This document shows, piece after piece, positions 29,391 through 51,351 of a stretch of 64,000 nucleotides of DNA. The position numbers and the translations under genes are program-made. This stretch comes from Escherichia coli. Its GTDB lineage: Bacteria > Pseudomonadota > Gammaproteobacteria > Enterobacterales > Enterobacteriaceae. Within the stretch, counting starts at the first letter, position 1, and every line of letters begins with the position of its first letter. The stretch lies in NCBI RefSeq assembly GCF_041248615.1, contig NZ_CP158426.1; one strand, written 5' to 3'. The notes under the pieces are model-generated. The model had not been told where the DNA came from, did not search any database, and saw nothing but the letters and a program-made list of their open reading frames with translations.

Positions 29391-30374
29391 TTATTTTACC
29401 GTGCTTAAAATTTCGATTTTCGCCACTCTGGCTTTGACTTTACGTGACCAGATAGAGGTAAGAATTGGCACCAGAATCGAAGTCACAATGACCGCCGTCG
29501 CAACCAGCGAAGTTGCTGCCGGAGCCATCGGTTTAAACGCAGGCACCATTTCAGCAATCAGCACAGGTGTCGCTACCGCGGCCCCTGCGGAACTGGAAGC
29601 GGCAATTCCGGCAGTGCCATCGCCACCGCCAATCAATTTATCAGCGATAATCAACGGAATACCGGTCACGATAATTACTGCCACACCCAACAGGATCCCC
29701 AGCAAACCTGTCTGGGCAATTACAGTCAAATCAATGGTATTGCCCAGTGCGAAGGCAAAGAACGGAATCAGCGTTTGCACCGCTTTGCTGAAAAATTCTC
29801 GCAATTCAGGATCAAGATTCCCCAGGGCAAAGCCCACCAGGAACGGTAATACTGCGCCGACGAAAACATGCGGTTCAAACGAGGCAATCCCGGCAGTGCC
29901 CAGAATAATCATCGTCATGAGCGGCCCGGACTCCAATGACATCAACACAAATGCCCCAGCTTCTTCTTTTGTGCCGTACTGCTGCATGATGGAAGCGTAA
30001 AGTCCGCCGTTGGTCATATCCATCGCCGCCACCAGCGCCAGCGTTGAAAGTCCGGCAAAGAATCCAACTTCAACACCATGTTCCGGAATAATGCGCGAGG
30101 CAATTGCCGCAACCACCCACGCGACGGCAATTTTTGTTACCACCAGCGTACCGGATTTACGCAATACCGTTCCCGTCGCGCTTAATTTTATTGACGCCCC
30201 CATGCAAAAAAACCACACCGCCAGAATGGGCACCGTACCGGTAATCATCCCGTTGGTGAATGATCCAAAATATTTCCCCGCCCCCGGCGAGAAGGTGTGG
30301 CACAGTGCGCCAAGGAATAGCGGGACGAGCATCATCCCCCCCGGGATTTTCTCAATCGAGCGTTTTATCTGCAT
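29391..30374 (-). CDS. kdgT: 2-keto-3-deoxygluconate permease
   Basis: Start at the ATG giving [31 protein letters not shown]... (327 aa), polytopic membrane protein. Confidence 0.93.
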
Positions 30375-46769: not shown

Positions 46770-47695
46770 GTATTCGCATAATCCCGCAAGATGAGCTGGG
46801 TTCGAGCGAGAAACGTACGGCGGATATGATTCCGCCGTTATTGTTCCCTCGGCTCAAGAATTTATACAACCGCCGCGCCGAGCGTCTGCGCGAGCTGGCA
46901 GAAAATAATCCGCTGGGTGATTACCTGCGCTTTGCTGCGCTTATCGCCCACGCCCAGGAAGTGGTGCTGTACGACCATCCGCTGGAGATGGATCTGACTG
47001 CACGCATTAAAGAAGCCAGCGCACAGGGCAAGCCCCCGCTGGATATTCACGTTCTGCCGCGTGATAAGCACTGGCAAAAGCTGCTGATGGCGCTAATTGC
47101 TGAGCTGAAACCTGAAATGAGCGGCCCGGCGCTGGCAGTGATTGAGAATCTGGAGAAGGCATCGACTCAGGAGCTGGAAGATATGGCCAGCGCACTGTTT
47201 GCCTCTGATTTCTCATCCGTCAGTAGCGATAAAGCGCCGTTTATCTGGGCTGCACTGTCGCTCTACTGGGCGCAGATGGCCAATCTGATCCCTGGCAAAG
47301 CCCGCGCTGAATACGGCGAACAACGTCAATATTGCCCGGTATGTGGCTCTATGCCTGTTTCCAGCATGGTGCAAATTGGCACCACTCAGGGTCTGCGTTA
47401 CCTGCACTGCAACCTGTGTGAAACCGAATGGCACGTAGTGCGCGTAAAATGCAGCAACTGCGAGCAGAGCGGCAAACTGCATTACTGGTCGCTGGATGAC
47501 GAACAGGCCGCGATTAAAGCCGAAAGCTGCGATGACTGCGGCACTTACCTGAAGATTCTTTATCAGGAAAAAGAACCGAAAGTTGAAGCCGTGGCAGATG
47601 ACCTCGCCTCTCTGGTACTGGACGCGCGAATGGAGCAAGAAGGCTATGCTCGTAGTTCCATCAACCCGTTCCTGTTTCCGGGTGAAGGGGAGTAA
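46766..47695 (+). CDS. fdhE: Formate dehydrogenase formation protein FdhE
   Basis: 309 aa with paired CxxC motifs ([27 protein letters not shown]). Confidence 0.95.
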
Positions 47696-47876
47696 TCTCT
47701 GACGTTTTCCGGGTGGCGCAGGTCGCCCGGATTACAGTTCATAGGGTGTGACGACACCATCTCTCTTATTCCGCGTTACCACCTCAAGCTATGCTGCCAG
47801 TGCCTGTTTTGCCTCAATTTTCACACTGAACAAATCGATAACAATATCGATATCAAATAGCCAAATCTTTTTGCCA

Positions 47877-48095
47877 TTACCATTCCTCGCGCAGCTTACG
47901 CTGGTATTCGACACCATCTTCCTCACTCCCTTGCCAGATGCCAAAAGCACTGGCTCTTGCTGTTTGCGATTGATTTACCAGGTATTGATCTACCGCTTCC
48001 CGTAATAGCTCCGCACGAGGAAGATTATGCTGCACCTCGAGATCATCAAGTTGCTTAAACAACTCATTCGATAAATTGAGTAAAATTCTGCCCAT
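47877..48095 (-). CDS. yiiF: Ribbon-helix-helix (CopG/antitoxin-like) small protein YiiF
   Basis: 72 aa from the ATG at 48095: [42 protein letters not shown]...; RHH pattern. Confidence 0.75.
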
Positions 48096-48337
48096 ATCTA
48101 TACCTGCCAGAGAGTTCATAAATATCTCGCCCATATCATTTTTGAATCTATGGAGAGAAAAGTACCCTTGTCGAATCTTTAAAGAAAGCGTATTTACGCA
48201 TCACTTTTTATTTTTGCGAGGCGTTTTCCAGATATGATGTAACAGTTGCAGTTATTATAAGTTCAAGTAAAACAGCCTTGTATTAATACCAGAATAAGGG
48301 CATCTGTTTTTTTATATTCAAGAATGAAAAATTTTTG

Positions 48338-48556
48338 TCATTCCTTATGCTCCTTACACTGATCATCAACACCAACTACCTCCCCCTTTTGCCTGCCTCC
48401 CTTTGCTTTACGCACCGGGAATTGCTGACGTTCCAGATATTGCTCTACCGCTTCGCGTAAAATTGCAGATCGTGAAACCTTACGCCAGCCCCTAAGCTTG
48501 TTCAGCCGTTTAATTGCCTCTTCTGATAAATGAAGAAAAACCGTATTCATCGCCAT
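48338..48556 (-). CDS. yiiE: Ribbon-helix-helix (CopG/antitoxin-like) small protein YiiE, paralog of YiiF
   Basis: 72 aa from the ATG at 48556: MAMNTVFLHLSEEAIKRLNKLRGWRKVSRSAILREAVEQYLERQ... Confidence 0.75.
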   Translation of the reverse strand: MAMNTVFLHLSEEAIKRLNKLRGWRKVSRSAILREAVEQYLERQQFPVRKAKGGRQKGEVVGVDDQCKEHKE

Positions 48557-48974
48557 TACCACCACCTTACATATATTACTCATTAATGTATGTGCGAAAA
48601 TTACGCCGAAAAATCATTTAAAAAAAGCGGATTTTTGCATGTCGTTTTGTTTTTGCGAGACGGCATCCAAAGATAATGTAACAGTTGCAGTTATTTCAAT
48701 TGTTACTCAAAAATGGTTTAGTAATAACCCAGGATGGTTTATTACTTTTAATTAAGCGGGGACACATCTACAGAAAAGAAACAACAAATAATAAGAATGA
48801 ATTATGGGTGCTATAAATATTTTATATTCAAGAATATTTTTTTGATTGGGTGTTCATTTGCTTCATCAGGATGGTGTACCCGAAAAAGTCAGCAGCTTTA
48901 CCGCACCAGGGTTTAAGGTGAAATCTACCATTCATAACTGACCGGTCAGTGCCGCACCAACCGGTCTTTAATTG

Positions 48975-49253
48975 TTAGTAGTAGTAAATTTGTGGATAAC
49001 AGTCCGGGAACCAGACGATTCCTTCTGGATCATCCCCCTGCATTACCCGATGACATTGGCGTCGATCATCTGCGCGACGGCGAAGCGTAGTATAGAGCCG
49101 CTTCCATTCATGATCGCCCGGTGTACTGTAGTTTACCCAACAATCCATTGAAGGGTGACGCCATTTACCTGTAAGTGTTGGGATCCCTGAATGATTATGT
49201 GGCTTCGCTTTACCATTACGATCCCTATCTTTACGCGTATTAAGCGTGGACAT
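48975..49253 (-). CDS. Hypothetical small basic His/Cys-containing protein (92 aa)
   Basis: ATG at 49253 preceded by CAGGAGACTAAAA (SD 8 nt upstream). MSTLNTRKDRDRNGKAKPHNHSGIPTLTGKWRHPSMDCWVNY...; no family recognised. Confidence 0.45.
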   Translation of the reverse strand: MSTLNTRKDRDRNGKAKPHNHSGIPTLTGKWRHPSMDCWVNYSTPGDHEWKRLYTTLRRRADDRRQCHRVMQGDDPEGIVWFPDCYPQIYYY

Positions 49254-49314
49254 TTTTAGTCTCCTGTTAAGAGTTCTAAAAATGTGCTTCCTTAAAATAG
49301 TTCATCATTTTCCC

Positions 49315-49527
49315 TTAATTCGCATAGCGTGCTTTTGCACGAATTTCCGATACGCGGGGACCATCATGATAGCGTCGATGCCCACACATCCAACAAGAAC
49401 AAATACAGGGAGTACGAAAGCAAATACCTGATGCTTTTTTGCTTCCATCGCCTGCAGTGCGATAACGGCAGCGGATTTTTTTTAATCGCGCCATATGATG
49501 GCGACGTTCAGCACGATTACGGGTCAT
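49315..49527 (-). CDS. Hypothetical small basic Cys-rich protein (70 aa)
   Basis: ATG at 49527 preceded by TCAGGAGTTTTACT (SD supplied by the R1 repeat hairpin). MTRNRAERRHHMARLKKIRCRYRTAGDGSKKASGICFRTPCICSCWMCGH...; no family recognised. Confidence 0.45.
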   Translation of the reverse strand: MTRNRAERRHHMARLKKIRCRYRTAGDGSKKASGICFRTPCICSCWMCGHRRYHDGPRVSEIRAKARYAN

Positions 49528-49532
49528 AGTAA

Positions 49533-49636
49533 AACTCCTGAGCAGGCGGCACTATGCCGCTTTCATAGGAGTTCTGAATGCTGGTGCTTTCTGTATGGCA
49601 TAACCATGCCTCTAACGGTTAAGTGCCTGCAGCACA
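49533..49636. repeat. ~104-bp repeat R1 (nested hairpin), direct copy of R2
   Basis: AACTCCTGAGCAGGCGGCACTATGCCGCTTTCATAGGAGTT... with outer stem AACTCCT/AGGAGTT and inner GCGGCA/TGCCGC; overlaps the 3' end of the antitoxin gene; ~85% identical to 51350..51453. Confidence 0.8.
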
Positions 49637-49902
49637 TGTTGCGGATCATTGGCAATCGCTCGCAGCAAAGCCTTTGCAGGCCCAGTCGGTGAACGTCGCC
49701 CCTGCTCCCAGTTACGCAACGTGTCTACGCTTACGGAAATAAGTTCGGCAAATTTAGATTGTGACAACCCTGAAGCGCGGCGTATTTCTTTGATTTTCAT
49801 AGCATCAACTTCAAAAGTCCGTGAAGGGTGTCGCGTTCCTTCAATAATTTCATTCATCTGGGCCATGCTGTGAGTCAACCGCTCAAAAAGTGCCTTATCC
49901 AT
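49612..49902 (-). CDS. HTH-XRE antitoxin (HigA-like), second gene of a toxin-first TA operon
   Basis: 96 aa; SD GAGGTGG upstream; start abuts the toxin stop. HTH segment IKEIRRASGLSQSKFAELISVSVDTLRNWEQGRRSPTGPAKALL. Confidence 0.8.
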   Translation of the reverse strand: MDKALFERLTHSMAQMNEIIEGTRHPSRTFEVDAMKIKEIRRASGLSQSKFAELISVSVDTLRNWEQGRRSPTGPAKALLRAIANDPQHVLQALNR

Positions 49903-50214
49903 TTACCACCTCGTATTTAACAACCGGAGCATTGCTTTTTCCTGGGGAGACAGATCATCTTTAATACCCTTACGATAAATAAGCAGTAATCTGATCTCAT
50001 AATGTTTAACCTGATGAAAGTAAATAACCCTGACACCAGCACGTTTCCCCTTTCCTCCTGACACCCATCGAACCTTTCTTAACCCACCAGTTTCAGGTAT
50101 TACCTCACCATAGTCAGGATTCAAGGCCAGGAAAAACTGAAAACGACTGAATTCATCGTCGGTCAGCAGTTTTTGAACATCTTCAGTAAAAATTTCCGTT
50201 TCGATGAAGAGCAT
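49903..50214 (-). CDS. RelE/ParE-superfamily toxin (HigB-like)
   Basis: 103 aa, MLFIETEIFTEDVQKLLTDDEFSRFQFFLALNPDYGEVIPETGGLRKVRWVSGGKGKRAGVRVIYFH...; resembles HigB-type toxins as recalled from memory. TATAAT sits immediately upstream of the ATG. Confidence 0.75.
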   Translation of the reverse strand: MLFIETEIFTEDVQKLLTDDEFSRFQFFLALNPDYGEVIPETGGLRKVRWVSGGKGKRAGVRVIYFHQVKHYEIRLLLIYRKGIKDDLSPQEKAMLRLLNTRW

Positions 50215-50430
50215 AATTATACGCCATTGGCTTAGAGTAACAATCCTTTTTGTACGTCATTGACGTACCCTTGAAACCACTAGCTTACTGATAGTGCTCC
50301 AGCAAAACCACGTCTCTGCCGGGTTTGTCTTTACATTTGCGAGGCGCTTTCCAGATTTTTCACGCCCGTGAATTTCCCTGTATCCATCCAGCAAAAACGG
50401 GTGTATAAAACTGTACATTCATACAGCAAA

Positions 50431-51351
50431 ATGAGTTCTACTATGGCACTGGAAAAAGGAATTGCAGAGTTAGTCGAAGAGTTTATCGCTGCGGGTCGCC
50501 CCTCATCGCGTCAACAAAGTATTGCGCAGCGCAGGGAGGGCTATATCGCCAGCGCTGTCCTTGCGGGTGAGACAGAAACGCGGGTAGATATTCAGACTAT
50601 CGAACTTGAAGGGATGATCTTACGAATAGTGTCACCGCTGAATGCCCCGACATTACTCCCGACGATAATTTATTACTACGGTGGCTGTTTTGTTAGCGGC
50701 GGGTTCGCAACTCACGACAACCAGCTGCGCCAGTTAGCCTATTACGGGCAATGTCGGGTTATTGCCGTCCAGTATCGGCTGGCACCGGAACAGACTTTCC
50801 CCGCCGCCCATGATGATGCGCAACGAGGTGCAGAATTAGTCTGGCAACACGCCGAACGACTCGGCGTTGATAAACAACGGATAACTCTTGCCGGTGACAG
50901 TGCGGGCGGACATCTGGCGCTGGTAACTGCTTTGCGATTAAAGCGTGCTGGCGAGTGGCAACCGGCACAACTCATCTTAATTTATCCCATGCTTGATGCG
51001 ACTGCGCATTTCGAAAGCTACATACGCAATGGTCACGATTACATCATCACACGCGACACTTTACTGAGCGGCTTTGAGATGTATCTGCCAGGCATTGAAC
51101 GCAGGCATCCTGAAGCCAGCCCTCTTTGGCGCGATGATTTCAATGGCTTGCCACCTGTACATATCATTACCGCTGAATACGACCCACTTTGCGATGAAGG
51201 TGAAGCGTTGTATCACCGCATGACAGGGCAAGGAGTGCAATGCACCTGCCAACGCTACCTTGGCGTTATCCACGGATTTTTTCAGTTAGGTGGTATCAGT
51301 GAGGCTGCGCGATCGGCGCTGCGGGATGTGGCCTGGAGAGCGGGAAGGTAA
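50431..51351 (+). CDS. Alpha/beta-hydrolase-fold esterase/lipase (HSL/Aes-like)
   Basis: Oxyanion-hole region YYYGGCFVSGG, nucleophile elbow GDSAGG, downstream catalytic Asp/His candidates. Start ambiguous: GTG 50368, ATG 50431 or ATG 50443, none with a clear SD. Confidence 0.7.
   Translation: MSSTMALEKGIAELVEEFIAAGRPSSRQQSIAQRREGYIASAVLAGETETRVDIQTIELEGMILRIVSPLNAPTLLPTIIYYYGGCFVSGGFATHDNQLRQLAYYGQCRVIAVQYRLAPEQTFPAAHDDAQRGAELVWQHAERLGVDKQRITLAGDSAGGHLALVTALRLKRAGEWQPAQLILIYPMLDATAHFESYIRNGHDYIITRDTLLSGFEMYLPGIERRHPEASPLWRDDFNGLPPVHIITAEYDPLCDEGEALYHRMTGQGVQCTCQRYLGVIHGFFQLGGISEAARSALRDVAWRAGR

Follow-up and report, generated by a model that had tools for sequence, protein, structure and literature searches.

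Putative CRP-S sites before yiiF, yiiE and a HigB-like toxin operon of Escherichia coli, and their recurrence upstream of enteric toxin–antitoxin modules

The stretch of Escherichia coli DNA considered here (64,000 nt of contig NZ_CP158426.1, hereafter the window) contains three small minus-strand transcription units, yiiF, yiiE and an operon encoding a HigB-like toxin and a NadS-family protein. Each is preceded by a copy of a 21-bp motif. These copies are very probably CRP-S sites, the class of site that the global regulator cAMP-CRP occupies only with the competence co-activator Sxy, and would serve to co-induce the three units. The motif matches the published CRP-S consensus and the known sites of E. 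coli competence genes, and it recurs in many enteric genera, mostly upstream of unrelated toxin–antitoxin (TA) modules. From these features of the DNA we infer that CRP-Sxy binds, and Sxy induces, at all three units.

The motif and the CRP-S consensus

The original prediction placed a conserved 21-bp motif upstream of yiiF, yiiE and the toxin gene. All three copies are present, with the third at 50336-50356 rather than 50337-50357. On the plus strand the motif reads TT-TGCGA-GGCG(C/T)T-TTCCA-GAT. A search of the whole window allowing up to three mismatches returns two matches where 0.01 are expected, a number reached by none of 100 shuffles. The yiiE copy is more diverged. It is better aligned without a gap than with the 2-nt gap proposed earlier, and in that register TGCGA-N6-ATCCA is kept while the changes fall mostly within the 6-nt spacer. 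The motif lies 94 nt from the start codon of yiiF (RefSeq start 48119; 118 nt from an alternative start at 48095), 96 nt from that of yiiE (48556) and 122 nt from that of the HigB-like toxin gene (50214).

The E. coli CRP-S consensus, T4G5C6G7A8-N6-T15T16C17C18A19, describes a 22-bp site that is asymmetric, orientation-independent and used for class-I activation with Sxy (PMC6728893). Two of the three copies match it at every defined position and the yiiE copy at all except one (Table 1). A weight matrix was built from six K-12 competence-gene sites only (sxy, ppdD, ycaI, ybaV, yifB and gntX; one base of the ybaV training sequence was wrong, T for A at flank position 1, with negligible effect). 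This matrix ranks the HigB-like/NadS site first among ~128,000 window positions with 27.5 bits, and the yiiF site, which is identical in K-12, second with 26.2 bits. Both outscore every training site and every shuffle. The yiiE site is third with 18.6 bits, inside the range of the shuffle maxima (mean 14.6, maximum 19.2). Ranks 4 and 5 (positions 29785 and 57514) are intragenic and also within the shuffle range. Over 171 kb of other K-12 DNA, no position apart from the known sites of the six competence genes scores 18 bits or more.

The resemblance to the sites of the E. coli Sxy (TfoX) regulon (sxy, ppdD, ybaV/comEA, ycaI/comEC, yifB/comM and gntX/comF) extends beyond the shared TGCGA-N6-TTCCA core. 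The GCC-TCGCA-AAA context is the same, the distance to the start codon is similar, and sites occur in either orientation. Written in the register of the competence-gene sites, the window motif reads TGGAAa(g/a)cgccTCGCAaaa (also TGGAAagcgccTCGCA), and the GCC before TCGCA and the A-run that follows are alike in both sets. The site-to-ATG distance is 94-122 nt in the window units, 119-137 nt at the competence genes, and 103-155 nt at candidate sites of the K-12 TA operons chpSB, higBA and hicAB. A difference is in the genes themselves, as the window units encode antitoxins and toxins rather than proteins of DNA uptake. In addition, copies associated with TA modules depart less from the consensus, and less from one another, than do the sites of competence genes, and from locus to locus and genus to genus they agree at 18 of 18 positions.

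The yiiF and yiiE units have more in common than the motif. A 79-nt direct repeat, 81% identical, spans 48178-48256 and 48617-48695. As originally described, the two copies continue into a shared extension, ATGTAACAGTTGCAGTTATT, which lies within this repeat. A second shared box, TTTTATATTCAAGAAT, is identical in both over 16 nt and located further upstream. The extension holds a direct repeat, ACAGTT-GCAGTT, and is less conserved at K-12 yiiE. Both elements are common to the yiiF and yiiE units only. Because YiiE and YiiF are themselves paralogues (38% amino-acid identity, E 1e-10), these units are best described as the product of a tandem duplication, in which the upstream region is better conserved than the coding sequence. 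The similarity of the HigB-like copy to the other two is limited to ~22-27 nt. The earlier proposal that the whole array was built by duplication thus holds for yiiE and yiiF, whereas the HigB-like unit shares the site alone. Its broader suggestion, a common cis-regulatory module through which the three units are probably co-regulated, is supported.

Dispersal of the motif and competing explanations

One genome per species, for 100,044 species, was scanned for the motif in gene sense, TCTGGAAARCGCCTCGCA. The scan identified 70 loci, of which 46 belong to Enterobacteriaceae or enteric-like contigs by our own classification of the listed records. Genera represented include Escherichia, Citrobacter, Enterobacter, Lelliottia, Kosakonia, Klebsiella, Trabulsiella, Buttiauxella and Siccibacter. 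The other 24 are scattered over unrelated phyla, a number not far from the 17 matches estimated to arise by chance. In at least 46 enterobacterial loci with unrelated flanks an 18-mer is invariant, and the distribution of mismatches is bimodal: 41 copies have none, 12 have one, one has two and one has three, followed by nine at the noise level of four. The flanks differ on both sides between classes of enteric loci, and across these loci no other position within -70/+130 nt of the motif is conserved. The motif therefore appears to be a discrete element of ~20-22 bp. String searches of the literature with the motif sequence gave no matches.

The genes downstream of the motif are mostly unrelated TA modules that start 77-135 nt after it. 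They include YiiF-like ribbon-helix-helix (RHH) proteins with VapC, HigB-like or Gp49-like toxins with helix-turn-helix (HTH) antitoxins, CcdA/CcdB and SymE. A RelB/RelE pair next to cybC has the motif in inverted orientation, and a module consisting of a C4-type antisense RNA and a ~150-aa protein carries it in either orientation, which fits the orientation independence of CRP-S sites. Among competence genes, sxy, ppdD, ybaV and ycaI likewise have close variants upstream. In E. coli a fourth copy lies ~110 nt upstream of yhcG, and K-12-type genomes have a degenerate version of it (locus L006, 2528-2720; U00096.3, ~3367613-3367827). The original prediction had considered that the motif might belong to a generic dispersed repeat. 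It is indeed dispersed, but as a transcription factor site of the CRP-S type and not as a selfish repeat. The term putative mobile promoters is used for upstream sequences that are identical before genes without homology. The present motif resembles these in that a near-identical module of ~20 bp precedes many unrelated genes in many genomes, and differs from them in that a factor-binding site alone, not a whole promoter, is shared.

This distribution bears on what the motif could be other than a CRP-S site. The original prediction suggested an operator bound by YiiE, YiiF or the HigA-like NadS protein, and RHH or HTH proteins are indeed encoded by the three genes or operons that the motif precedes. 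However, it is asymmetric, it lacks the repeats typical of RHH or HTH operators, and it is identical upstream of CcdAB, SymE, Gp49-like/HTH, RelBE and yhcG, where the regulators are unrelated or absent. In all, the same sequence stands before at least eight unrelated module types and yhcG, with variants at competence genes. Each unit has a different and better operator candidate near its start codon, as with the palindrome at 50253-50269 or, in yiiF homologues, the inverted repeats that cover the ribosome-binding site. Because unrelated TA families follow an identical motif, an operator for the cognate antitoxin can be discarded, and binding by any of the three encoded proteins is very improbable. 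A sigma-54 (-24/-12) promoter, with CTGGAAAGCGCCTCGCA read as GG-N10-GC, places GG and GC in the correct register in all copies, including degenerate ones, and weak bound sites such as CTGGAACGCTTTTCGCA exist. With a matrix from the 135 sites located by chromatin immunoprecipitation sequencing (ChIP-seq) by Bonocora et al., the motif nevertheless receives 4.9-5.4 bits, below all 135 bound sites (minimum 6.7, median 14.4), and 186-228 window positions match that score. Neither yiiE nor yiiF has a ChIP-seq peak in the high- or the low-stringency list, yhcG has none in the high-stringency tables of the main text, and no transcription start mapped at yhcG lies just downstream of the motif. We regard this identification as exceedingly improbable. 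The copies could also be relics without a function, left by duplication or by DNA that spread horizontally, as the tandem duplication of yiiE and yiiF and the decay of some copies (yiiE in this strain, yhcG in K-12) might suggest. Conservation of 18 of 18 positions across genera amid diverged flanks, the bimodal mismatch distribution, and the exact match to an independently defined functional consensus make this highly unlikely.

Several further candidates were rejected. A sigma-70 -35 element within the motif has no -10 partner at a spacing that stays the same from locus to locus, and a search by eye for an RNA pairing partner returned sporadic complements only. The antisense-RNA idea raised by G0-10703 at yhcG does not extend to other loci. 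A phage or plasmid origin was set aside, with four viral-contig matches and enteric plasmid-record matches that are mostly chromosome-sized or megaplasmid. The motif fits no consensus among those of Xer/dif, integron attC, LexA, PurR, Cra, marbox and IHF.

A rather different proposal is that the motif is an attachment-like site at which small TA cassettes insert, exchange and delete, building arrays such as that of yiiF, yiiE and the HigB-like unit. Homology between genomes does break at the motif. On the clpA side, the 5' flank and the motif are common to four species with four different 3' contents, one of which is a TA module. Two yhcG-upstream variants lose similarity at the motif, and classes of 5' flank are joined to classes of 3' flank in several different pairings. 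In Citrobacter, locus L013 differs from locus L016 in lacking exactly the 1,610 bp that separate two copies of the motif, and the 21-nt motif is where the two alignments overlap. As read from sequence, however, the motif has no inverted-repeat arms and no Xer/dif resemblance. No recombinase gene was noticed among the open reading frames (ORFs) listed beside the copies, a point on which no systematic search was made. The motif is nearly absent from viral contigs, most enteric matches in the plasmid collection are in chromosome-sized or megaplasmid records, and the same type of sequence stands at core competence promoters, which are not cassettes. Furthermore, the breakpoint in K. grimontii is 19 nt away from the motif, and deletion between 21-bp direct repeats requires no dedicated site. 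A dedicated recombination site is thus unlikely. The breaks may represent no more than deletion or exchange at short identical repeats, and recombination at the motif could follow secondarily from there being many near-identical sites, without being their function.

The CRP-S site may travel with the cassettes or be selected anew at each locus, and it may help to stack them. It is conceivable, if somewhat doubtful, that the near-invariant, consensus-grade module serves throughout the Enterobacteriaceae as a portable front end for small TA and defence-type cassettes, placing them under Sxy while also providing short homology for their gain, loss and stacking. The families covered by such a role would be VapBC, HigB-like, Gp49/HTH, CcdAB, SymE, RelBE, the C4-RNA module and yhcG.

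The identification as CRP-S sites also has several observations to contend with. The yiiE site is degenerate in this strain, while that of K-12 is consensus-grade (TTCTGGAAAACGCCTCGCAAAA). All 18-22 positions, the 6-nt spacer included, are near-invariant across unrelated loci, which exceeds the uniformity of the competence-gene sites, and CRP contacts alone are insufficient to account for it. At K-12 yhcG the mapped starts (3367641 and 3367673) lie upstream of the degenerate site, and the antisense RNA G0-10703 (start 3367770) reads across it (PMC7967276 supplement). For this reason the K-12 yhcG site is not the active promoter element under standard conditions. Finally, no paper linking Sxy to yiiE, yiiF or yhcG appeared in a literature search that did not extend to the regulon tables of Sinha 2009, where 34 transcription units are reportedly Sxy-regulated. 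The gene for Sxy is annotated in K-12, and the window itself contains neither sxy nor crp; the presence of both proteins in this strain is presumed from its identity as E. coli.

Promoter arrangement and known TA operons

If the three copies are CRP-S sites, accumulation of Sxy together with high cAMP would lead to CRP-Sxy bound ~95-120 nt upstream of each start codon. The bound complex would then activate, in class-I fashion, a distal and intrinsically weak promoter (P1), so that yiiF, yiiE and the HigB-like/NadS operon are co-induced. Each unit would keep its own proximal control region besides this P1. In the HigB-like operon that region would consist of a palindromic operator and a second promoter (P2), with a transcript that starts inside the toxin ORF and therefore supplies antitoxin only.

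Candidates for these elements can be located in the HigB-like unit. The start predicted for P1 (~50284) and the centre of the CRP-S site (50345.5) are 61.5 bp apart, and Siccibacter has GATCAT at the position aligned to the -10-like hexamer. The -10 element of the candidate P2 ends 2 nt before the toxin ATG, and a start ~7 nt downstream of it would fall within the toxin ORF. The -35/-10 layout of P2 is kept in Siccibacter as TTGCAA-16-TATAGG. The perfect palindrome between P1 and P2 is likely the operator of the NadS/HigA-like protein. Comparison of the E. coli module with its orthologue in Siccibacter turicensis identifies three conserved blocks. The CRP-S site is kept at 18/18 positions and the palindrome block GGGTACGTCAATGACGTAC at 19/19, and the third block is the -10 region. 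Conservation is poor over the ~65 nt that separate the CRP-S site from the palindrome block. For yiiF and yiiE, proximal promoters can be named only as candidates.

This predicted arrangement parallels that of E. coli hicAB and Haemophilus influenzae toxTA, in which a distal CRP-S promoter P1 is induced by Sxy and a proximal, antitoxin-repressed P2 produces a transcript giving antitoxin without toxin (PMC6957337). The HigB-like operon is similar in that the toxin gene is first, the putative CRP-S site is distal, and a proximal promoter and operator are predicted at a place from which the P2 transcript would miss the toxin start codon. Its HigB-2/RelE-like toxin and NadS/MqsA-like HTH antitoxin belong to families unrelated to HicAB, and both of its promoters are predictions. 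The sites differ as well, as that of K-12 hicA reads TGGAA-N6-TTCCT rather than TGGAA-N6-TCGCA.

Three other TA loci of K-12, chpSB, higBA and hokD, are reported to be Sxy-induced (PMC11951105, citing Sinha 2009). TA modules under a competence regulator would be the common feature. The loci and the half-site combinations differ, and yiiE and yiiF do not normally figure among TA genes. The sequence TGCGAgacgacTCGCA, 155 nt upstream of K-12 chpS, has a perfectly palindromic CRP-S core of the Haemophilus type (locus L091, ~4680-4701). K-12 higB has TGGAAtcgcgcTTCCA 147 nt upstream (L090), and the candidate site of K-12 hicAB is TGGAAtcttccTTCCT (L085). At both higB and hicA of K-12, TTCTGGAA-N6-TTCC(A/T) is observed, a pairing of two 'weak' half-sites.

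Genomic setting and implications

Of 5,426 complete E. coli genomes, 5,424 have a match to the region, and in one of these the match is at 100% over 2.8 kb. Downstream of fdoHI-fdhE, the order on the minus strand is yiiF, yiiE, two small hypothetical ORFs, the NadS-family HTH gene and the HigB-2/RelE-like toxin gene, beyond which lies a divergent alpha/beta-hydrolase gene (Table 1). At the same site K-12 has yiiF and yiiE only. A Rfam covariance-model search of window positions 47000-51500 returned nothing at E<=1.

Table 1. Features of the yiiF-yiiE-HigB-like array in the window, with K-12 competence-gene sites for comparison
Feature	Position	Strand	Sequence or remark
Motif copy, yiiF unit	48213-48233		TTTGCGAGGCGTTTTCCAGAT; read from sequence
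Motif copy, yiiE unit	48652-48674		TTTGCGAGACGGCATCCAAAGAT; read from sequence
Motif copy, HigB-like unit	50336-50356		TTTGCGAGGCGCTTTCCAGAT; read from sequence
Putative CRP-S site, yiiF unit	48212..48233	-	ATCTGGAAAACGCCTCGCAAAA; core TGCGA-GGCGTT-TTCCA, 10/10 consensus
Putative CRP-S site, yiiE unit	48651..48672	-	CTTTGGATGCCGTCTCGCAAAA; degenerate, core TGCGA-GACGGC-ATCCA, 9/10
Putative CRP-S site, HigB-like/NadS unit	50335..50356	-	ATCTGGAAAGCGCCTCGCAAAT; core TGCGA-GGCGCT-TTCCA, 10/10
Shared extension, yiiF and yiiE units	48237..48256, 48676-48695	.	ATGTAACAGTTGCAGTTATT; upstream of CRP-S site in gene sense
Shared box, yiiF and yiiE units	48310-48325 and 48820-48835		TTTTATATTCAAGAAT
Predicted P1 -10-like hexamer	50291..50296	-	CACTAT; start predicted ~50284
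Candidate P2, sigma-70-type	50216..50243	-	TTGTTA-16-TATAAT; 10/12 consensus match
Perfect palindrome	50253..50269	.	GTACGTCA-T-TGACGTAC (= GTACGTCAtTGACGTAC); read from sequence
Candidate proximal promoter, yiiF	48145..48174	-	TCGACA-18-TAGATT; 9/12 consensus match, consensus scan only
vapC N-terminal remnant, truncated	47789..47876	-	Directly 3' of yiiF; ORF end ...KKIWLFDIDIVIDLFSVKIEAKQALAA / ...IWLFDIDIVIDLFSVKIEAKQALAA
yiiF	47877..48119	-	80-aa RHH protein (RefSeq annotation); orphaned VapB-type antitoxin
yiiE	48338..48556	-	72-aa CopG/RHH protein, YiiF paralogue (RefSeq annotation)
Small hypothetical ORF, 92 aa	48975-49253	-	Downstream of nadS (RefSeq)
Small hypothetical ORF, 70 aa	49315-49527	-	Downstream of nadS (RefSeq)
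NadS-family HTH antitoxin-like gene	49612..49902	-	96 aa; NCBIfam NF041265 NadS
HigB-2/RelE-like toxin gene	49903..50214	-	103 aa, first in operon; 'toxin HigB-2' in one RefSeq genome
K-12 sxy CRP-S site			CGGAAagagccTCGCAaat (validated); same register CGGAAagagccTCGCA
K-12 ppdD CRP-S site			TTCGTaacgccTCGCAaat; same register TTCGTaacgccTCGCA
K-12 ycaI CRP-S site			TGGAAgctgccTCGCA
K-12 ybaV CRP-S site			CTGAAgccgccTCGCAaaa; same register CTGAAgccgccTCGCA
K-12 yifB CRP-S site			TGGAAtgatgcTCGCAaaa; same register TGGAAtgatgcTCGCA
K-12 gntX CRP-S site			AGGAActtagcTCGCA

YiiF is taken to be an orphaned antitoxin because a VapC remnant directly follows its gene and intact vapC genes follow its homologues. 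Aligned with residues 3-29 of intact VapC from locus L003, where vapC of E. coli CE-O153H30 occupies 3033-3407, the remnant shows 67% identity, and a second intact vapC is found 3' of the yiiF homologue in Trabulsiella (L075). The HigB-like toxin matches Pfam RelE weakly (E 0.006), and its Siccibacter homologue has an identical gene layout. The NadS-family gene reaches 60.4 bits against NF041265, for which the cut-off is 60, and also has a weaker match to the MqsA family. The 70-aa and 92-aa ORFs, neither of which matched an NCBIfam family, may be part of the nadS transcription unit. Between yiiE and the 92-aa ORF, the plus strand has a terminator-like hairpin, GACCGGTCAGTGCCGCACCAACCGGTC followed by TTTAATTG (48942-48968), with no Rfam match and no obvious plus-strand gene. 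This hairpin is kept in K-12 (L002, ~4311-4340) and partly deleted in L003.

Insertions of ISEc53, IS621 and IS1 are observed between yiiF and the hydrolase gene in several other E. coli strains, and these fit a description of the region as a variable hot spot. In Siccibacter turicensis (L042, 1496-3300) the HigB-like/NadS module and its CRP-S site adjoin fdhE. Because they occupy the place of yiiF and yiiE in E. coli, the fdhE-distal intergenic region looks like a recurrent landing place of small TA units in different genera.

Some of the dispersed copies have noteworthy surroundings. Citrobacter youngae has two CRP-S copies, with a HigB-like/HTH module and then ccdAB (L016, 1921-3548), and in Citrobacter sp. 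Cu233 the segment between the copies is missing, with the junction on the 21-nt motif (L013, 7379-7399). Matches to the C4 antisense RNA (RF01695) occur at L010 863-949, L025 6127-6214, L046 7359-7444 and L070 1783-1867. Each lies ~150-170 nt from a CRP-S copy and is followed by a ~150-aa protein without a Pfam domain, and the two may constitute an uncharacterised RNA-protein module of enteric chromosomes. In 11 Enterobacter and Kosakonia loci (L027, L030, L035, L037, L055, L072, L056, L058, L061, L064 and L011, the last next to yfhM) the CRP-S copy is followed ~60 nt on by a near-perfect palindrome of ~22 bp (for example GTAACGTAACATGTTACGTTAC) and then by TTTGTTTTTAAAACAA. These loci have no convincing ORF and no Rfam match.

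CRP-S sites and the control of some TA operons by Sxy are known already, and no new kind of element is described here. The HigB-like/NadS unit's CRP-S site and the breadth of the TA association across genera were not found in the literature searched, with Sinha 2009 again outside that search. If the identification is correct, three adjacent antitoxin and toxin units, together with many unrelated TA modules of enteric bacteria, would join the Sxy/CRP competence regulon. Sxy-dependent co-induction of the three units would be expected, and the HigB-like operon should have two promoters, P1 being distal and P2 proximal and antitoxin-only. A regulatory context would be gained for yiiE, yiiF and yhcG of K-12, which are poorly characterised, and the link between competence and TA modules so far known from hicAB, chpSB, higBA, hokD and Haemophilus toxTA would be widened.

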